Assembly (NCBI GenBank): GCA_027340875.1
Contig: DAIENX010000007.1
Coordinates: forward strand, 129,871-193,870
DNA from: Elusimicrobiota bacterium
GTDB taxonomy: Bacteria; Elusimicrobiota; Elusimicrobia; Elusimicrobiales; UBA9959
DNA: 64,000 nt
Reading direction: 5' to 3'
Below the pieces are notes generated by a model. The model saw only the letters and a list, made by a program, of their open reading frames with translations, ran no database searches and was not told where the DNA came from. The translations under genes and the position numbers were made by a program. This document shows, piece by piece, positions 39,895 through 49,434 of this stretch (the stretch's first letter is position 1; the number at the start of each line of letters is the position of its first letter).

Positions 39895-40794
39895 ATGAGG
39901 ATACTAGAAGGCAAGACCCTTTCAACTGAGATCCTGGGCGCCCTTCCCGCCAGAATAGAGGGCGTCCGCGCCAGGCTGGGCAGGCCCCCGTCGCTGGCCA
40001 TCATCAACTATTTCGCGGACTCGCCCTCGGCGGTCTACGTCAAGCGCAAGATCGCCGCCTGCGAGAAGCTCGGCATAGCGGTCAAGCTCTTCTCCCCGAA
40101 GGCCGAGGAAGGGTACCCCGCTTTCAAGGCCCTGCTGGCCAGGCTGGGCGCGGACCCTGCATACGACGCCATCATGATAGAGCGCCCGCTGCCCGACGGC
40201 TTCGAGACGCTGGAGACCTGGGACGCCGTGCCGGCCGCCAAGGACGTGGACGGCCTCTCCACGATGAACATGGGGCGCCTGTTCATCTCCAAGAAATTCT
40301 CGGAGATAGAGACCGGCGGCTACTTCGTGCCCTGCACGGCGCTCGCCGTGGTGAGGCTGATGCGTTTCCACGGCATAGACCCGGCCGGCATGAACATAGC
40401 CGTGGCCGGCCGCTCCGCGGTGGTGGGCAGGCCGCTGGCGCAGATGCTCACCGCGCTGAACGCCACCGTAACGGTCTGCCACACGCGCACCAAGGACATC
40501 GCCTCGGTATTCAGGGCCGCCGACCTGGTCATCACCGCCGCCGGCAAGGCTAAATGGCTCAAGAAGGAGCTGCTGCCGCCGGGCGCGATGATCATAGACG
40601 TCGGAACGAACTTCGACGAGAACGGCAGGATGTGCGGCGACGCGGACCTCGAGGACATCAAGGGCTCCGCGGAGGCGGCTTCGCCGGTGCCCGGCGGGGT
40701 GGGTCCGGTCACGCTGGCCTGCCTGATCGAAGCCTCGGTGCGGGCCGCCGAGCTGGCGCCCAGGACCGAGAAAGGCGGGATAATCCTGACATGA
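39895..40794 (+). CDS. folD: Methylenetetrahydrofolate dehydrogenase/cyclohydrolase
   Basis: YVKRK, KDVDG, PCT, GRSAVVGRP, IDVG, PVPGGVGPVT. Confidence 0.95.
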   Translation: MRILEGKTLSTEILGALPARIEGVRARLGRPPSLAIINYFADSPSAVYVKRKIAACEKLGIAVKLFSPKAEEGYPAFKALLARLGADPAYDAIMIERPLPDGFETLETWDAVPAAKDVDGLSTMNMGRLFISKKFSEIETGGYFVPCTALAVVRLMRFHGIDPAGMNIAVAGRSAVVGRPLAQMLTALNATVTVCHTRTKDIASVFRAADLVITAAGKAKWLKKELLPPGAMIIDVGTNFDENGRMCGDADLEDIKGSAEAASPVPGGVGPVTLACLIEASVRAAELAPRTEKGGIILT

Positions 40795-41459
40795 GAACGA
40801 TACTGAAACTGGCCCTGGCGCTGCTGCTGCCGGCCGCCCTGGCGCTGCCTGGAGCGGCGCAGGACGAGGACGCGGGAGACGCGCCCGCGGAACAGGCCGC
40901 CGCTGCGGGCGGCGATGCCGCCCAGAAGCCGGAGGCCCCGAAAAAAGCCGAGGCCCCGAAAGAACCGGCAGCTAAAAAAACCGCGGTTAAAAAGAAGTCC
41001 TCTAAAAAGAAGAAGGCCAAGAAGAAGGAAGAGCCTGTATCGGAGTACAAGTTCTCCTCCGGGGAAGAGCAGGGCACCTACAAGCTGGACAAGGACGCGA
41101 ACCCGATCCGGGAGGAAAGCGCCGCCAAGAAGAAAGCGGCGGCGAAGAAAAAATCCTCCAAGAAAAAATCCAAAAAGAAGGCCGCCAAGCCGGAGGACGC
41201 CAGTTCCGACTACAAGTTCTCCTCGGAAGAGAGCGGGTCGACCTACAAGCTGGACAGGAAGGCCAACCCGATAGTCGACAAGTCGAAGAAAAAGAAGAGC
41301 TCCGGAAAAAGCGCCGGGAAAGGCGCACAGACCCCGATACCCAAGCTTCAGCCGGCCAAGTCAATCGGCGAAGAGGACAAGCCGGAGGGCGGCATGCCCG
41401 GGGGACTGCCTCCGGGCCTTCAGGGCTTGATGGGCGGCGGCGGGGGAGGCGGAAAATAA
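40791..41459 (+). CDS. Secreted Lys-rich protein with duplicated YKFSS..TYKLD..ANPI motif
   Basis: Signal peptide; ATGA overlap with folD; two 23-aa repeats separated by poly-Lys tracts. Confidence 0.75.
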   Translation: MRTILKLALALLLPAALALPGAAQDEDAGDAPAEQAAAAGGDAAQKPEAPKKAEAPKEPAAKKTAVKKKSSKKKKAKKKEEPVSEYKFSSGEEQGTYKLDKDANPIREESAAKKKAAAKKKSSKKKSKKKAAKPEDASSDYKFSSEESGSTYKLDRKANPIVDKSKKKKSSGKSAGKGAQTPIPKLQPAKSIGEEDKPEGGMPGGLPPGLQGLMGGGGGGGK

Positions 41460-41947
41460 TGTCAGACCTTCTGGTAAAGCTTTACGAACTGCCGTCATCG
41501 AGAGACGTCCTTGAGCGGCTGGGAAAGGACGGCATAACGGTGCGCCGCGCTATAGGACCGGAAAAACACGCTGTGGTCGAGTGGGTAGAGAAGGAATTCT
41601 CACGCGCCTGGGCCTCCGAGTGCGACGTAGCGATGTCCTCCCACCCGGTCTCCTGCTTCATCGCCGAAAAGGACGGGAAGATCCTGGGCTTCGCCTGCTA
41701 CGACGCCACCCTGAAGGGCTTCTTCGGCCCGATAGGAGTGGACCGCTCGCTGAAGATAAAAGGGCTGGGCTCGGCCCTGCTGCTGCGCGCGCTGGAAGCC
41801 ATGCGCGACGCAGGCTACGGCTACGCCGCCGTAGGCTGGGCTGGACCGGTGGACTTCTTCAGGAAGACCGTAGGCGCCATCGTCATAGAGGGCTCGGAGC
41901 CAGGAGTCTACAAGGGGCTGGTGAAAGCCGCCCCACGCAAAGAATGA
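41459..41947 (+). CDS. GNAT family N-acetyltransferase
   Basis: DLLVKLY, GFACYD, FFGPIGV...GLGSALL. Confidence 0.9.
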   Translation: MSDLLVKLYELPSSRDVLERLGKDGITVRRAIGPEKHAVVEWVEKEFSRAWASECDVAMSSHPVSCFIAEKDGKILGFACYDATLKGFFGPIGVDRSLKIKGLGSALLLRALEAMRDAGYGYAAVGWAGPVDFFRKTVGAIVIEGSEPGVYKGLVKAAPRKE

Positions 41948-42690
41948 AAGCCGGCCGCGACTGGCACAGGGGTTTCTTCAGGAACTCCTTCTACAATCCC
42001 GCCTCGGAAGCGGCCGTCGAGAAAGCCCCGGCGGAAGCCGCTTTCGTCCTTAGAAAGCTCGGGCTAAAAAAAGGGTCCGCCCTGCTGGACCTCTGCTGCG
42101 GTCCCGGCCGGCACGCCGTGGAATTCGCGAAGAAGGGCCTGGCCGTCACGGGCTACGACTATTCCGCCGAGTACCTGAAAGAGGCCGGGGAGCGCGCGGC
42201 GCGGAAAAAGGTAAGGCTGCGCCTGGTCCGCGGCGACATGCGGGACCTGAAGTTCCTCTCCGAGTTCGACGCGGCCGTTAACCTGTTCACCAGCTTCGGT
42301 TATTTCCTTAAATTCTCCGACGACATCAGGACGCTGAAAGGCGTGGCCCGCGCCCTCAGGCCGGGCGGCCTGTTCCTGATAGACATCGTCAACGGGGCCT
42401 TCGTCCGGAAGCATTTCCGGCCCGAGAGCTGGTGCGATATGGGAAGCTATTACCACCTGGAACGGACCGAGCTCACCGCAGACGGGACGCACAATACCTG
42501 GACCCGCGTCCCCAAGCGCGGCGGCAAAGCGGGAAGCAGGACCTTCTTCACCAGGATGTACGATAAAAAACGCCTGAGCGCCGCGCTGCGCCGGACGGGC
42601 CTGAAGCCTCTCTCCTTCTGGGGGAATTTCCGCGGCGCGCCGCTTTCCGACGACCGCAACCGCCTGATCTGTCTCGCTAAAAAGTCCTGA
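41944..42690 (+). CDS. Class I SAM-dependent methyltransferase
   Basis: LDLCCGPGRH, GDMRDL, NLFTSFGY, LRPGG; start ATG 41944. Confidence 0.92.
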   Translation: MKAGRDWHRGFFRNSFYNPASEAAVEKAPAEAAFVLRKLGLKKGSALLDLCCGPGRHAVEFAKKGLAVTGYDYSAEYLKEAGERAARKKVRLRLVRGDMRDLKFLSEFDAAVNLFTSFGYFLKFSDDIRTLKGVARALRPGGLFLIDIVNGAFVRKHFRPESWCDMGSYYHLERTELTADGTHNTWTRVPKRGGKAGSRTFFTRMYDKKRLSAALRRTGLKPLSFWGNFRGAPLSDDRNRLICLAKKS

Positions 42691-42699
42691 ACACTGCCG

Positions 42700-43716
42700 C
42701 TAGCCCTGTCCCGCGGCCAGCTGGCCGCAGGCGGCGGCTATATCCCCGCCCTTCTCCGGCCTAAGATAAGTGCGCAGGCCAGCCGCTATCAGCTCCCGCT
42801 GGAAGGCCTTAACGCGCGGCGTTTCGCCGCCGGGCGAGCCGGGGGGATTGTACGGTATCAGGTTGACGCGGCACGGGATGCCGCCGATGAGCCCGGCCAG
42901 CAGCGCGGAATCGGAAGGCCGGTCGTTCAGGCCCGGGAAAAGGATATACTCGAACATCACGTGCGCGTCGCGGGCCGCGCAGTAATTCCTCACGGCGTCG
43001 ATCACCTTCCGCAGCGGATATGTTCTCTCCATCGGGACCAGCCGCGCGCGCTGCTCCTCTTCGGCCGCCACTACGGAAACCGCCAGCCGCACCTTCAGGT
43101 CCGAGGCGGCCAGCTTCTCTATGACGGGGATCACCCCGACGGTGGAGAGCGTCATCTTGGCCTGCGGGAAATGACGGCCGCGGCTGTCGGACAGTATGCG
43201 TATGGCCCTCTCTACGTTCTCCCAGTTAAGGAAAGGCTCCCCCATGCCCATGAAGACCAGGCTGCTGAGCCCGCCGTCGGCCTCCTTCAGGCAGGCCTCG
43301 AACTGGGCTATTATCTCCGGCGCCGTAAGGGAGCGCTTGAGCCCGAGCGCGCCCGTGGCGCAGAACGTGCAGCCGCAGGCGCAGCCGGACTGGGAGGAGA
43401 GGCAGGCCACCAGCCTGTCCTTGGCCGGCAGCACCACGCATTCTGCCGGGGCGCCTTCGGAGAAGCGAAGCAGCATCTTCCGCGTTCCGTCGCGCGACAC
43501 CTGCAGCTTCTCCGGGGAAGGCACCGCGGAGAGGGAGAATGCCGGCGAAAGGGCGGCGCAGACCCGGGCGGGCACTCCGGGCAGGGAGGACAGGTCCCCG
43601 TCGCGGCGGCGGTGGACGGCCAGATAGACGGCGGCGGCGTGGGACGGCTTCTCGCCCAGCCGCGCCAGCTCGCTCTCCAGCTCCGGCCGGGTCAGGCTCC
43701 TAAGATCGGACTTCAT
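42700..43716 (-). CDS. rlmN: Radical SAM RNA methyltransferase RlmN
   Basis: DGTRK, CLSSQSGCACGCTFC, MGMGEP, VNLIPYN, DIAAACGQL. Confidence 0.9.
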   Translation of the reverse strand: MKSDLRSLTRPELESELARLGEKPSHAAAVYLAVHRRRDGDLSSLPGVPARVCAALSPAFSLSAVPSPEKLQVSRDGTRKMLLRFSEGAPAECVVLPAKDRLVACLSSQSGCACGCTFCATGALGLKRSLTAPEIIAQFEACLKEADGGLSSLVFMGMGEPFLNWENVERAIRILSDSRGRHFPQAKMTLSTVGVIPVIEKLAASDLKVRLAVSVVAAEEEQRARLVPMERTYPLRKVIDAVRNYCAARDAHVMFEYILFPGLNDRPSDSALLAGLIGGIPCRVNLIPYNPPGSPGGETPRVKAFQRELIAAGLRTYLRPEKGGDIAAACGQLAAGQG

Positions 43717-43759
43717 CAAATTCAAGTTTCTATTCAAAATTCCCTACAGGAGGGTGAGT

Positions 43760-43989
43760 CAAGTACATGGGCCCGTCGGGAACGCTATCGGCCACTGACC
43801 AATGGTCGTGCCGCATCAGGAGCTATGCTCTTCAAGCGGCCACCGTGGCCGCGCTCCCGCACTGCGGTGTCGCTTCGCTCCACCCGGCCTCGGCGCTGGC
43901 CTATGGCCGTGCCGTATCAGGCGCTATGCGCATCAGACGGCCTGCGCAAGCCTCGCCCTGCGCGAGGGCCCGCCGAACCCATGTCCTTG
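43760..43989 (-). other. Structured element with terminal inverted repeat and two tandem covarying modules (candidate cis-regulatory RNA or MITE)
   Basis: 43760-43780 pairs 17/21 with 43969-43989 (two mismatches are G-U on minus strand); modules 43791-43841 and 43893-43942 differ by compensatory changes. Confidence 0.65.
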
Positions 43990-44003
43990 CCCCGCCCACA
44001 GAA

Positions 44004-45011
44004 CTAGCCCGCGAGTTCGAACATCCTGTCTATGGCCACCTTGGCCTTGGCGGCTATGTCCGCCGGCACGGTCACCTCGGGATAGGCGGGGTCGCGCAAC
44101 GCGGCGAGCACGCTCTCGAGCGTTATGGACTTCATGTACGGGCAGAGCCGGCACATCGCTATGAAATTCTTTTGCGGGAAGCGGAGCTTCGCCAGCTCGC
44201 CGAAGCCGCACTCGGTCACCAGCAGGTAGCCGGAGGCGTTCGTGCTCTCGACGTAGCGCATCATGTCCCCGGTGCCGCCCATGAAGTCCACGGCCGCGAT
44301 CAGGTCGGAGGGGCACTCGGCGTGGGCCAGCACGGCCAGGCCGGGGTGGTTCTTCCTGTAGACCTTGATCAGCTCCGGGTTGAACTGCTCGTGCACGATG
44401 CAGGTGCCCTTCCAGAGTATGATGTCCCTGCCCGGGGTCTTGCCGAGGGCCTTGGCCAGGTTGGCCCCCATAAAACGGTCGGGGACGAAGATGACCTTGT
44501 CGTGCTTCTCGTAGACCCGGCGCAGTATCTTCTCGGCGTTCGCGCTGGTGACGATGCAGTCGGACTCGGCCTTCACCTCGGCGGAGGTGTTGATGTACGT
44601 GACCACCGGGGCGCCGGGGTGCTCGGCCTTGAGCTTCCGGACGTCCGCGCCGGTTATGGACTCGGAAAGAGAGCAGCCGGCGTTGGAGGAGGGGACCAGG
44701 ACCTTCTTGCCGGGGTTCAGTATCTTGGCGGTCTCGGCCATGAAGTGGACGCCGCAGAAAACGATGACGTCGGCGTCCGTCCTGCGGCAGTCGTCGGCCA
44801 GCTTGTAGGAGTCTCCGACCAGATCGCCTATGCCGAGGATGATGTCCGGGGTCTGGTAGACGTGGGCGCAGACCACAGCGTTCCTCTCTTTCTTAAGCCG
44901 GTTTATCTCCTGCGTCAGGGCCGCGACCTTCTCGAGCCCGCCCTCGACGCAGCGCTGGTGCAGGCCCAGCGCGGTCAGCCGCTTCACCTCTTCCTTCAGT
45001 TCCTGGTCCAT
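44004..45011 (-). CDS. nadA: Quinolinate synthase
   Basis: AHVYQ, GDSYKL, FCGVHFMAETAKIL, GCSL, YINTSAEVKA, CIVH, CPYMK. Confidence 0.95.
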   Translation of the reverse strand: MDQELKEEVKRLTALGLHQRCVEGGLEKVAALTQEINRLKKERNAVVCAHVYQTPDIILGIGDLVGDSYKLADDCRRTDADVIVFCGVHFMAETAKILNPGKKVLVPSSNAGCSLSESITGADVRKLKAEHPGAPVVTYINTSAEVKAESDCIVTSANAEKILRRVYEKHDKVIFVPDRFMGANLAKALGKTPGRDIILWKGTCIVHEQFNPELIKVYRKNHPGLAVLAHAECPSDLIAAVDFMGGTGDMMRYVESTNASGYLLVTECGFGELAKLRFPQKNFIAMCRLCPYMKSITLESVLAALRDPAYPEVTVPADIAAKAKVAIDRMFELAG

Positions 45012-45012
45012 G

Positions 45013-45735
45013 TTATTTATCCAGTATGTCCGGGTAGTTGCTGAAGATGCAGTCCACCCCGATCGCGCGCAGACGGATGGCGTCCTTCTTCTCGTTGACG
45101 GTGTAGATGCAGACCTCGAATCCGGCCTTCTTTATCAGGCCCACGTTGGCCTTGAAGGCCAGCCTCAGCGCCATGTGGAAATTCACCGCCCCGACGGCCC
45201 TGGCCTTCCTGATGGCCGGGGCCAGCAGCACCGTGCTGAGCCCGTGCCCAAGGTAGGCCAGCCGGATTTCGGACGAAAGGGCGCGGAAGCGCTTAAGCGT
45301 GCCGTGGTCGAAGCTCGACACCAGGGAGCGCTCGAGCATCCCGGGCCGGCCGGCGATAGCGGCCAGCACCTGCTCCTCTATGCCGGGGTAGACGTTGTCG
45401 TCGTTCTTCACCTCGAAGTTGAGCAAGCGCGCACCGGGTCCTATCACGTCCAGGACCTCTTCCAGGCGCGGCACCGGCTGGAAGGCCGGGTCGGCCGCGA
45501 AGTGCGCGGCCGCGTTGAGCTTCACGAGCTCGGGGTAGTCCAGCTCCGCTATCCTGGCCGGGGAACCGGCAGTGCGCTTCAGGTCGAAATCGTGGTGCAC
45601 CACCAGCACGCCGTCGCGTGTCCGGTGCACGTCGAACTCGTGGTCGACGGCGCCCATCTCCACCGCCAGGCGGAAGGACTTGAGCGTGTTCTCCGGGGCG
45701 TAGCCGGAGGCCCCTCGGTGGGCTATGACCCTCAT
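45013..45735 (-). CDS. Glycerophosphodiester phosphodiesterase
   Basis: IAHRGASGYAPENT, EFDVH, YTVN, IFSNYP; start ATG 45735. Confidence 0.92.
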   Translation of the reverse strand: MRVIAHRGASGYAPENTLKSFRLAVEMGAVDHEFDVHRTRDGVLVVHHDFDLKRTAGSPARIAELDYPELVKLNAAAHFAADPAFQPVPRLEEVLDVIGPGARLLNFEVKNDDNVYPGIEEQVLAAIAGRPGMLERSLVSSFDHGTLKRFRALSSEIRLAYLGHGLSTVLLAPAIRKARAVGAVNFHMALRLAFKANVGLIKKAGFEVCIYTVNEKKDAIRLRAIGVDCIFSNYPDILDK

Positions 45736-46541
45736 GCGAAGTACCTCCGTACGCCGGAGAAAAGCTCTTCGGAATATTCGAATCCGGCCATCTTGTCGCG
45801 CTCGGTGCCGGGCCCGTGGTAGTCGGTGCCCGCGGTGACGAAGAGGCCGTAACGCGCCGCCAGGGCGGTGAATTCCCTGATGGCCGAGGCGCTGTGGGCC
45901 GGATAGAAAGCCTCTATACCGGCGAGGCCGGCGTCCTTCCACGCCCCGAGGTCGAGTATCTTGGCCACGACCCCCGGATGGGCCAGCACGGCCGCGCCGC
46001 CGGCGTCACGGACAGCCTTTATCGCCTCCTGCACCGTGGGGCCGTTGGGGCTCACATAGGCGGAAGCGCCGGGAGCAAGGTAGCGCTTGAAAGCCTGGCT
46101 GCGCGTAGGGACGAGCTTCCGCCTGATCATCGCGTCGGCTATATGCGGCCGGCCGACCGTGCCGGAGCCGCTCTCGCGCAGCTCCTCGAAAGGGATATCT
46201 ATGCCGAGCCCGGAGAGCAGCCCCAGGATCTTCTTTATCCTGACCAGGCGGCGCCCGCGGAATTCCTCCAGCCTGGCGGCCAGCGCCGCGTCGACGGGGT
46301 CAATGCCGTAGCCGAGTATGTGCAGGTTCTCGTTCAGGCAGGTGCTGATCTCCACGCCGTAGCAGTAGGCTATGCCGGCGGCCTTGAGGGCGGGCTCCAT
46401 CTCCGCCCAGCCGCCGGTCATGTCGTGGTCGGTCAGCGAGAAGTATTTGACGCCGGCCCTGGCGGCCTCGGCGGCCAGCCTCCCCGGCGGCAGCGTGCCG
46501 TCGGACCAGGTGGAATGGGAGTGAAGGTTGATAAGGTCCAT
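45732..46541 (-). CDS. PHP-domain phosphoesterase (TrpH/RNase AM-like)
   Basis: LHSHSTWSDG, LTDHD, GVEIS, GRPHIA, LAHP, GTDYHG. Confidence 0.92.
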   Translation of the reverse strand: MDLINLHSHSTWSDGTLPPGRLAAEAARAGVKYFSLTDHDMTGGWAEMEPALKAAGIAYCYGVEISTCLNENLHILGYGIDPVDAALAARLEEFRGRRLVRIKKILGLLSGLGIDIPFEELRESGSGTVGRPHIADAMIRRKLVPTRSQAFKRYLAPGASAYVSPNGPTVQEAIKAVRDAGGAAVLAHPGVVAKILDLGAWKDAGLAGIEAFYPAHSASAIREFTALAARYGLFVTAGTDYHGPGTERDKMAGFEYSEELFSGVRRYFA

Positions 46542-46607
46542 AAAAGAGCGCACAGGCCTGGAGTTCCCCCGAAAGGGCGCCCGGCCTGTGCGATCGGAGC
46601 GGACGGC

Positions 46608-46832
46608 TCAGCCGACGGTTATCTCTTTTACCCCGGGGACTTCTTCCTTTATCAGGCGCTCCACTACGTTCTTGAGCGTCATCGTGGAGTGGGGGCAGCA
46701 GCCGCAGGCGCCGGTCAGGCGCACGGTCACTACGCCTTTCTTCTCGTCCACGCCCACGAGCTCCACGGACCCGCCGTCGGCGGCGAGCATGGGCTTTATC
46801 TTCTCTATAACTTTTTGCACTTGTTCTTTCAT
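46608..46832 (-). CDS. NifU/NfuA-type Fe-S scaffold domain protein
   Basis: [15 protein letters not shown]...GACGCCPHS. Confidence 0.92.
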
Positions 46833-46919
46833 GGCGGTGTACCTCGTACCATAAATTATACCATTGGGGAGCGGCGGGGAGGAAACGCCGGCGGGCGCCC
46901 ATTAATATATAATTAGACT

Positions 46920-47285
46920 ATGTTGAAAGAGATCCGCAACGTGATGCAGGTGAAGGGCGAGCCGCGCAGGCGCTGGTTCGACGACGACTATTTCGACCTG
47001 ATAGTCTGGTTCGAGCCGGACGGCTCTTTCTTCGGTTTCCAGCTCTGTTACGACAGGGAGCGCAAGCCCCGCGCACTCACCTGGACGAAAAAGTACGGCT
47101 ATAAACATACCGGCATAGATACCGGAGAGCATGTCTGGGGCACGTCCAAAGAGGCCCCGGTGCTGGTGGCCGACGGCCTGTTCGACGCCCCGTCCATCGG
47201 CAGGCGCTTTTCCGAGGCCGCCGCCGATATCCCTGCCGACATCTCCTCCTTCATCTCGGCCAAACTCAAGGAGTTCAAGCTCTGA
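46920..47285 (+). CDS. Conserved-looking hypothetical protein
   Basis: RRWFDDDYFDLIVW..GFQLCYD; TATAAT 6 nt before ATG. Confidence 0.75.
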   Translation: MLKEIRNVMQVKGEPRRRWFDDDYFDLIVWFEPDGSFFGFQLCYDRERKPRALTWTKKYGYKHTGIDTGEHVWGTSKEAPVLVADGLFDAPSIGRRFSEAAADIPADISSFISAKLKEFKL

Positions 47286-47767
47286 TGCCGAGATATTTCA
47301 AACCCTCCGGAGGTTCCGGGGACAAAGGCTTCACCGACCTGCTCGGCGGCCGGCGCGTGCCGAAGACGGACCGCCGTATAAAACTGAACGCGCTGCTGGA
47401 CGAGCTTTCAGCCATGATAGGGATGCTGAAGGTCTCACTGCGGGACAGGGCGCTGAAGAAGGAGCTGACCTCCGCGCAGGCCGGGCTGGTACGAACATCC
47501 GCCGTCATAGCCGGCATGAAGGCCGACCTGAGCGGCGAGATCTCCGCGCTGGAGGCCCTTATAGAAGCCCGCTCCGAAAGGACCCGGCCGCCGAAGGAAT
47601 TCGTGATGCCCGGGGCCAACGAGGCCGAAGCGCTCGCGCATCTGGCCAGGACCAGGGCCCGATGCTGCGAGATCCTGGCCTGGGAACTGAAAGCCAAGGA
47701 CCCGGCCGTATACCTTAACCGCCTCTCCGACTACCTCTTCCTCGCCGCCCTCTCCGCGGGCAGGTAA
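47285..47767 (+). CDS. PduO-type cob(I)alamin adenosyltransferase (divergent)
   Basis: GDKGFT..GGRRVPK, DELSAMIG, FVMPG, YLNRLSDYLF. Confidence 0.8.
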   Translation: MPRYFKPSGGSGDKGFTDLLGGRRVPKTDRRIKLNALLDELSAMIGMLKVSLRDRALKKELTSAQAGLVRTSAVIAGMKADLSGEISALEALIEARSERTRPPKEFVMPGANEAEALAHLARTRARCCEILAWELKAKDPAVYLNRLSDYLFLAALSAGR

Positions 47768-47775
47768 TAGGACAT

Positions 47776-47807
47776 AAAAAAACCGCCCCGAAAGGCGGTT
47801 TTTCTTT
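47776..47807. terminator. Bidirectional intrinsic terminator
   Basis: A7-CCGCC-loop-GGCGG-T5 between convergent genes. Confidence 0.85.
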
Positions 47808-47826
47808 GCCACGCGCCTGGCTTTCC

Positions 47827-49434
47827 CTACATCCGCTCCGGCGCGGAGACGCCCAGCATGCCGAGGCCGCGGGCTATCACGCCTTTCACGGCCTTCAGCA
47901 GGAACAGCCTGTAGGCGGTAACTTCCTTGTTCTCCGGGTCAAGCACCTTGTGCTGGTCGTAGAAGGAGTGGAACAACGCGGCGAGTTCCATCAGGTAGGT
48001 GGTCAGGTGGTGGGGGGAATTGTCGCGGGCGCAGTCGGCGAGGGTCTTCTCCAGCCACAAGAGCTTCAACATCAGCGCCCGCTCCTCGGGATTGATGGCG
48101 GCCTTAGCCTCGTCGAAGGAGGCGGCCGCGTCCACGCCCTTGGCAGGCGCGTTGTCGAAGATGGAAGCTATGCGCGCGTGCACGTACTGCACGTAGTACA
48201 CCGGGTTCTCGTTGGAGCGCTTCTTCGCCAGCTCCACGTCGAAGTTCAGGTGCGTGTTCGGGCCGCGCGAGGCGAAGAAGAAGCGGCACGCGTCGGTGCC
48301 GACGTCGTCCATCAGTTCCTTCAGCGAGATGAAGTCGCCGGCGCGCTTGGACATCTTCACCACTTCCTTGCCGCGCAAGAGCGACACCTGCTGGTGGATG
48401 ATGACCTTGAACGTGCCCTTATCGTAGCCGAGCGCCTTTACGGCGGCCTCCATGCGCGGCACGTAGCCGTGATGGTCGGCTCCCAGGATGTCTATCAGGC
48501 GCCTGAAGCCGCGCGAGAACTTGTTGAGGTGGTAGGCGATGTCGTTCAAGAAATAGGTGTTGCGGCCGTCGGCCTTCACCAGCACACGGTCCTTGTCGTC
48601 GCTCTCCATCTCCGAGGCGGCGCCGAACCAGACGGCGCTCTCCTTCTCATAGGTCATGCCGCGGGTCTTCAGCGTCTCCAGCGCGGCCTTCGGCGCGCCG
48701 GCGGCGTGCAGCTCGCTCTCCAGGAACCAGCGGTCGAAATGCACGCCGAAGGCCTGCATATCCGTCTTATGCAGCTTGAGCATCTCCGCGACGGCGTACT
48801 CGGAGAACTGCGCGGCGGTCCAGCCGGCGGCTTCTTTAGGCAGCGCGGCGGCCATGTCCCTTAGGTAGTCGCCGTAGTAGCCGTCCTCCGGGGGCTCTTT
48901 GCCCTCGAAGCGGGCCTTGAGGGACAGCCCCAGTTTCTCCACCTGGCGCCCCACGTTGTTGACGTAGAACTCGGTGCAGACCGAGGCACCGAGCTCTTTC
49001 CAGATGCGCGCCAGGCTGTCACCCAGCGTGGCGCCGCGGCCGCTGGCCAGGTGCATGGGTCCGGTCGGGTTGGCGGAGACGAACTCTAGATTGATCTCCT
49101 CTCCGGCGAACTCGGGCCGGTGGAAGGCGTCCGGCCGCTCCAGGTCCTTCAGCGCGGCGAATAGGAAAGCTGGGGCGAACTTCACGTTCACGAAGCCCGG
49201 GGGGACAACTTCGGCGTCGGCCGCCACCGCAATGGCAGCCTTCAGCTCTTCCGCTATCTTCAACGGGGTTTTTTTCAGCAGCTTGGCCGCCGAAATGGGC
49301 CAGGCTATAGAGGCGTCGGCCTTGATATGCGGCGGCGGCGCGGCCAGGGAAAAAGCGGCCAGCGCGGAGTCGTCCAGGGAAAAGGCCGCCTTAGCGCGGC
49401 TTTTGAGGTCGGCTTCCAGGGCGGAGATCTTCAT
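47827..49434 (-). CDS. argS: Arginine--tRNA ligase
   Basis: EFVSANPTGPMH, GADHHGY, KMSKRAG, NPVYYVQYVHARI, SAPERM. Confidence 0.97.
   Translation of the reverse strand: MKISALEADLKSRAKAAFSLDDSALAAFSLAAPPPHIKADASIAWPISAAKLLKKTPLKIAEELKAAIAVAADAEVVPPGFVNVKFAPAFLFAALKDLERPDAFHRPEFAGEEINLEFVSANPTGPMHLASGRGATLGDSLARIWKELGASVCTEFYVNNVGRQVEKLGLSLKARFEGKEPPEDGYYGDYLRDMAAALPKEAAGWTAAQFSEYAVAEMLKLHKTDMQAFGVHFDRWFLESELHAAGAPKAALETLKTRGMTYEKESAVWFGAASEMESDDKDRVLVKADGRNTYFLNDIAYHLNKFSRGFRRLIDILGADHHGYVPRMEAAVKALGYDKGTFKVIIHQQVSLLRGKEVVKMSKRAGDFISLKELMDDVGTDACRFFFASRGPNTHLNFDVELAKKRSNENPVYYVQYVHARIASIFDNAPAKGVDAAASFDEAKAAINPEERALMLKLLWLEKTLADCARDNSPHHLTTYLMELAALFHSFYDQHKVLDPENKEVTAYRLFLLKAVKGVIARGLGMLGVSAPERM

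Follow-up and report, generated by a model that had tools for sequence, protein, structure and literature searches.

A dispersed 46-nt repeat with exact ends, probably moved as folded single-stranded DNA, forms the structured modules between nadA and rlmN in an Elusimicrobiota genome

We analysed a window of 64,000 nt from contig DAIENX010000007.1 of an Elusimicrobiota bacterium (assembly GCA_027340875.1). A structured element lies between nadA and an rlmN-like gene, as the preliminary description of this DNA had stated, with both flanking genes on the minus strand and the rlmN-like gene scoring just under its curated cut-off. The features are as follows, in window coordinates; an arrow marks a junction between two bases, and C↓W stands for C↓T or C↓A.

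42700–43716, minus strand: rlmN-like radical SAM RNA methyltransferase gene, downstream neighbour, outside the element (269.9 bits against a cut-off of 290)
43760–43780, no strand assigned: left arm of the closing stem, extendable to ~43752
43781–43968, minus strand: core of the carrier repeat, conserved and here split by three inserts (~83 genomic copies)
43796–43841, plus strand: copy 1 of the 46-nt mobile unit, inserted at C↓A in the carrier (empty form found 26–30 times in the sequences searched)
43861–43883, plus strand: optional 23-nt sub-module with the GCGAAGC mini-hairpin, starting after C↓A, its presence varying among carriers
43897–43942, plus strand: copy 2 of the 46-nt mobile unit, inserted at C↓T in the carrier (empty form found 4 times)
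43969–43989, no strand assigned: right arm of the closing stem, extendable to ~43997
44004–45011, minus strand: nadA, quinolinate synthase gene, upstream neighbour, outside the element (above the NCBIfam cut-off)

The preliminary description reported two modules of about 50 nt, 101 nt apart; the spacing is correct, but the true unit is 46 nt long. Copy 1 consists of a T, a 4-bp hairpin with a 3-nt loop, GT, a long hairpin with a symmetric 5 × 5 internal loop and a TAT tip, and a final C. The two copies differ at nine of 46 positions, and six of these nine make up the three compensatory pairs that had been described; the left strand of the internal loop, ATCAG, is identical in both, also as described. 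The 21-nt terminal stem pairs 43760–43780 with 43969–43989 and has four mismatches, two of them C·A on the plus strand (G·U on the minus strand), and the GCGAAGC mini-hairpin noted on the minus strand of the spacer is located at 43872–43878 (GCTTCGC on the plus strand). The region 43750–44000 folds better than shuffled sequences (RNA z −4.6 for the minus and −2.4 for the plus strand; DNA z −3.0 and −2.0). When metagenome contigs were aligned to the window, loose contig ends accumulated at 43896 and 43942, and the summed depth across the modules was ~30 times that of the flank.

Such an arrangement could be a tandem-aptamer leader controlling rlmN or nadA, as had been proposed: two structured modules lie upstream of rlmN, and the outer stem folds best on the mRNA strand. 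However, the module is confined to the source genome among 30 nadA loci compared. It is absent from all 29 others, including five of the six at which rlmN follows nadA. At G065 the nadA–rlmN gap is ~12 nt; in G023 and G031 it contains a related carrier that lacks the module and is closed by another stem, and in G025 and G018 another repeat. At least two further unrelated long-stem repeat families occur after nadA at other loci (L064, L066, L068, L070, L072 and L087). No family of neighbouring genes recurs beside the module, it has no steady sense position before one gene class at orthologous loci, and the strand of the module that tolerates wobbles is antisense to nadA–rlmN here. No promoter or terminator consensus was found at the element. 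No curated RNA family matched it, the best Rfam score within it being 16.6 bits (E 0.73), and nothing across 40000–48000 exceeded a gathering score. (A bidirectional terminator-like hairpin at 47774–47812 explains weak Rfam matches there to sraL, STnc370 and RNAI.) A hammerhead-like CUGAUGA on the minus strand was also dropped, since the stem is not followed by GAAA and the A is not constant. We regard the riboswitch reading as largely refuted and scarcely credible, and consider it highly probable that we are dealing with a mobile element instead.

The search for dispersed copies gave a very different picture. A sequence profile seeded with the two modules settled at 65 matches in the genome (2.8 Mb), against none when the genome was reversed. 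Full-length matches number 46, and four groups of identical copies occur among them. By our own gene caller, 53 matches are intergenic, 11 lie at gene ends and one lies inside a called gene. Orientation to transcription is unbiased: 17 units are sense and 20 antisense, 11 lie between convergent and nine between divergent genes, and seven are at contig ends. Most surviving copies lie in intergenic DNA, or at places where the opening bases of the unit (TAG or TAA) stand in for a stop codon. Apart from common domains and orthologous sites that several genomes share, clustering of the genes next to the units showed no enrichment of any family, mobile families included; the open reading frames between paired units were all ordinary.

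Beyond the source genome, a covariance model matched 70 of 80 genomes of one Elusimicrobiales family, among them all 42 other genomes of the same genus, with from one to at least 69 matches each. The high-copy genomes include G000, G006, G036, G004, G217, G128, G215, G203, G205 and G169; G105, G196, G197, G160, G193 and G194 are free of copies. Units persist across ten genera and widely different genomic GC. In a sample of the phylum outside the family, two of 141 genomes matched, once each, and named records with the unit are nearly all Elusimicrobia MAGs. A single good unit lies on a contig labelled Woesearchaeota (L142:2500; record label only), and another in an AT-rich Elusimicrobiota genome of a different family (L448:1500-1560). 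The viral contigs searched gave no match and the plasmids searched only chance-level matches.

On the plus strand, the unit reads T, a 4-bp hairpin with a mostly TAT loop, GT, a 5-bp stem, the symmetric 5 × 5 internal loop (A·G, T-A, C·C, A-T, G·A), a 4-bp stem with a TAT loop, and C. The earlier claim that the structure is under selection is supported: among 30 aligned copies, 98% of cells pair, eight of 15 pairs vary on both sides, and none of 500 shuffles reached the score, a control that is inflated by sequence kinship, although slid partners pair in only 27–43% of cells. The C·C mismatch in the stem is conserved at 165 of 173 sites. Across 210 distinct cores, G·T wobbles outnumber A·C by 57 to 12, and the excess has the same sign in sense and antisense units (6:1 and 3:0, small numbers); since G·T predominates on the plus strand, we infer that this strand, antisense to the nadA–rlmN mRNA here, is the one that folds. 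Closing the unit on itself is predicted to give a dumbbell whose two tips are alike, and this predicted circle is less stable than the unjoined unit (−6.7 and −8.8 compared with −10.2 and −12.3 kcal/mol). Profiles of flanks and linkers show CT or CA before hairpin 1 and YGTG before hairpin 2, with positions further out variable.

The ends of the unit are exact. From 420 matches we retained 264 unique full-length sites, excluding partial, gapped and edge matches. The left junction is C↓T at 202 sites and C↓A at 38 (240/264), and the right junction is C↓A at 132 and C↓T at 100 (232/264); at many sites a left CT pairs with a right CA, and no target consensus extends beyond C↓W. When exactly 46 nt were removed, 31 of the 181 non-tandem flank pairs joined into a 16-mer also present at another place in the DNA searched, compared with at most six of 181 for eight other removal offsets and at most four of 181 for models with a target duplication. 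The preliminary description had offered a single-stranded-DNA or MITE-type element as another possibility. The dozens of dispersed copies support that alternative, but the unit is not a classical MITE: the unit ends are not complementary, and the terminal inverted repeats and target-site duplication of DDE-type MITEs are absent.

A conserved gene, which we take to encode ATP synthase subunit a, ends in C↓TGA, and the unit sits at this junction in the source genome. In the closest relative, G023 (97% protein identity), the gene end is C↓TGA exactly without the 46 nt, whereas the more distant G010 (81%) carries a unit at the same place; the other 27 of 30 loci compared lack it. Among units that open with a stop codon, a stop follows in 20 of 58, compared with three of 123 otherwise (Fisher p 8e-9, with one partial repeat among the 20; related sites make the p-values overstated). 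From these counts, we read insertion into a stop codon as surviving only if the unit supplies a new stop.

Turnover is rapid. Over 270 kb of G023 (88% identity), one of ten mappable sites is shared unchanged with the source genome, and at one further site the unit is at a different position of the same repeat. Tandem arrays with a 46–47-nt period comprise 11 doubles and six triples, some arrays end in partial copies, and nested copies occur in which units are inserted at their own internal C↓A sites. Targets show a modest preference for folded DNA, 87 of 150 folding at −4 kcal/mol or better compared with 154–169 of 400 controls. A lagging-strand test by GC skew gave a correlation of 0.02, the skew signal being uninformative, and among contigs from four DNA runs of one study, which drop rare variants, no joint skipped exactly 46 nt at the loci covered.

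Without its units, the nadA–rlmN element is a member of a second family with ~83 copies in the genome, each consisting of a conserved core of ~100–120 nt, the optional 23-nt sub-module and a closing stem. It is this carrier that provides the closing stem around both window units. The stem is locus-specific, with 58 distinct arms in 59 stems and a median of 19 bp. Carriers fold better on the strand opposite to the unit in 67 of 70 copies, regardless of gene orientation, and their stem wobbles favour that same strand by 47 to 15, which accounts for the minus-strand G·U pairs noted earlier. The 23-nt GCGAAGC sub-module at 43861–43883 has 26 motif matches in several contexts and host repeats.

The unit might instead be mainly a protein-binding or mRNA-stabilising hairpin selected by the host, shuffled between repeats by gene conversion and not by transposition of its own. 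Carrier cores do appear to have been swapped inside resident stems: G000 C71:63260-63470 and its closest relative, L530, keep the same outer locus-specific stem around different cores. Moreover, all 14 units borne by carriers share one orientation and reuse two sites. However, 51 of the 65 genome matches lie outside this carrier family, many in unique DNA; stop-codon insertions have exact empty orthologues; and copy number ranges from 1 to >60 within one genus. We consider shuffling by gene conversion improbable. At carrier site 1, 91 copies are empty and 12 filled. The window modules, described as tandem, are better explained as independent insertions of a gene-less 46-nt repeat into a larger palindromic repeat than as a local duplication.

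We favour, at somewhat better than even likelihood, HUH single-strand cut and paste as the means of insertion, since the junctions, the lack of target duplication, the tandem arrays, the self-insertion and the strand asymmetry all fit. The unit would move as folded single-stranded DNA, the plus strand as written. A RAYT-type HUH nuclease acting in trans would cut this strand 3′ of C at C↓T or C↓A and presumably stay joined to the 5′ end after cleavage; the unit would then close into the predicted dumbbell circle, with C-TAT-G tips at both ends, and reinsert at any exposed C↓W. In two studies, TnpA-REP (RAYT) cuts single-stranded REP at C↓T, Marinomonas TnpA-Mb cuts also at CA, and the route proposed for TnpA-REP is excision of a single-stranded circle followed by reinsertion (PMC3333891, PMC8266576). 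RAYT nucleases cut at C↓T and C↓A, so the most probable route is excision of the unit as a single-stranded circle of dumbbell shape, the fit of the unit's junctions to this specificity being read from sequence alone.

Among the matches listed for the genome, genus and family we found no cognate Y1 or RAYT gene. None of 110 Y1 loci in the genus, all in incomplete MAGs, was flanked by the unit, and up to 260 unit-bearing loci examined held no Y1 gene. A further 120 Y1 windows, many overlapping, yielded one gene with an adjacent unit, a RAYT with its own GTAG repeats; a search with this RAYT found none of its type in 43 genomes of the genus. At that locus, in another genus (L504:690-850), a GTAG double-foot REP immediately precedes the RAYT gene, which is of subclass-2.4 type, and nested 46-nt units are inserted at C↓A where this REP ends; the RAYT reading frame itself also contains a REP. 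The only Y1 gene of the source genome has subclass-2.1-type motifs and flanks unlike the unit (subclass scheme of PMC6006769). Three IS200-like genes seen in the genus have ends that differ from the unit, and a scan of the source genome's reading frames for HUH motifs gave no new candidate. Copy number does not follow Y1 content among these genomes, all incomplete MAGs: G217 has 62 copies and no NF047646 match among those listed, G032 has 31 copies and only an HUH-dead Y1 gene, and G012 has one copy and four Y1 genes. The folded strand lacks a GT[AG]G (or CGTC) foot.

Two observations concern the Y1 genes themselves. A RAYT-like Y1 gene beside ileS (L031; G000 C111:16320-16958) is kept across the genus (orthologues L541, L543-L545, L590-L599, L614-L617 and L619). 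In several genomes it lacks the HUH histidines and, where examined, flanking palindromes, while the frame and a C-terminal motif are retained, suggesting a domesticated, non-catalytic protein. Separately, most Y1 genes in L035-L060 and L200-L261 are preceded by a −10-like box that has a CGACA-N(6-7)-TGTCG palindrome, a candidate repressor operator, directly ahead of it; this palindrome occurs also elsewhere, and some 46-nt units are inserted into it.

The wide search that produced no Y1 link bears on whether another enzyme moves the unit. Such an enzyme, unrecognised or with a housekeeping function, could for example be a tyrosine recombinase that recognises folded single strands, as in integron integrases and XerCD-hijacking elements, and has a single C as its core. 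The persistence of units in ten genera of very different genomic GC, copy-rich genomes in which no intact Y1 gene was found and the conserved stem mismatches, above all C·C, agree with it, and by sequence alone the shared C is indistinguishable from a 1-bp core. However, the source genome has just two tyrosine recombinase matches, of XerC/D size (and inferred to be XerC/D), neither with a unit nearby; the GTT core of attC sites has no counterpart in the unit; and the pair C↓T and C↓A matches RAYT chemistry exactly. We therefore rate this recombinase as rather unlikely. Other candidate enzymes fared no better. The source genome held no IS91-type Y2 gene, and GxxExxY was found in none of five genomes. 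One GIY-YIG gene has a unit ~70 nt downstream, but such genes occur in high- and low-copy genomes alike and so do not discriminate. IS110-dependent movement was assessed by a duplicated 2-bp core, a long specific target and a DEDD recombinase in the genome, and was rejected: the source genome gave no PF02371 match, no consensus extends past C↓W, and a left CT often accompanies a right CA.

A further possibility is an RNA route, in which the transcribed dumbbell is reverse-transcribed or reverse-spliced into DNA; RNA-mediated spread was reportedly suggested for the cyanobacterial small dispersed repeats. The absence of target duplication, the G·U-compatible variation and the tandem arrays that end in partial copies would suit such a route. 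Against this, no reverse transcriptase was matched in the source genome or in three of five other copy-bearing genomes, the units have no orientation bias relative to transcription, and no Rfam ribozyme matched. We consider this route, too, to be improbable.

We also entertain, tentatively and as clearly the less likely reading compared with RAYT-type cut and paste, that the 46-nt dumbbell is the substrate of an unrecognised, non-RAYT single-strand cut-and-paste enzyme that would be core to this Elusimicrobiales family, C↓W-only and scarless, and would also assemble other C↓W-bounded micro-modules into mosaics.

Among described systems, the unit works most like REP/BIME and REPIN elements. The REPs and BIMEs that go with TnpA-REP in E. 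coli, Stenotrophomonas and Marinomonas (PMC3333891, PMC8266576, PMC6006769) are likewise short, intergenic, GC-rich imperfect palindromes in many copies, with tandem and mosaic clusters, a conserved stem mismatch, C↓T and C↓A ends and strand asymmetry. However, the unit fails the guide tetranucleotide and the linked RAYT: it has no GT[AG]G foot, and no REPtron was found. It also has two hairpins per 46 nt with fixed ends one base from each hairpin, and its arrays run directly head to tail, whereas REPs form inverted pairs. REPINs (PMC3116915) are non-autonomous, vertically kept and variable in copy number, and precise excision through a single-stranded intermediate has been proposed for them as it is for the unit; yet a REPIN combines two REPs in inverted orientation and has a linked RAYT, and the unit is an asymmetric two-hairpin monomer with no linked RAYT found. 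Nesting inside larger palindromes is described for REPs as well (PMC3733652); in the present family, empty carriers are common (91 empty, 12 filled at site 1) and the majority of units are outside the carrier.

Hairpins at each end and the lack of target duplication are shared with IS200/IS605 ends and their non-autonomous derivatives, of which IS608 has an established circular single-stranded intermediate; the target of the unit is a dinucleotide, however, and that of IS200/IS605 a tetranucleotide. The small dispersed repeats (SDR) of Nostocaceae, reportedly described by Elhai et al. in 2008, are about half the length of the unit, and we know of no enzyme shown to mobilise them. They too are very small gene-less repeats at short defined sites, such as SDR5 in HIP1 (PMC5861425). 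Compared by description only, they differ from the unit in phylum and sequence, and the unit has the C↓W rule and a covarying dumbbell. A literature search on Elusimicrobia palindromic repeats, covering titles and the starts of abstracts, returned none on the 46-nt repeat, and the family tables of PMC3733652 could hold a related one. We conclude that the 46-nt repeat is a REP/SDR-like micro-repeat distinct from those described in the literature searched.

One consequence is that a spurious riboswitch candidate drops out: covarying copies of a mobile repeat look like a structured regulatory RNA. The spread of very small palindromic repeats such as REPs and SDRs is still largely inferred, and this family gives unusually sharp evidence for it, in a fixed 46-nt length, exact C↓W ends, empty sites, an orthologous filled and empty pair and a strand-specific fold. 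The unit thereby offers a defined oligonucleotide on which excision from a single strand and closure into a circle can be assayed. Profiling should be able to trace the missing enzyme, since copy numbers across the 80 related genomes span 1 to >60. Were that enzyme of a non-RAYT kind, these Elusimicrobiales would harbour a new class of minimal mobile DNA together with a compact, scarless integration system.
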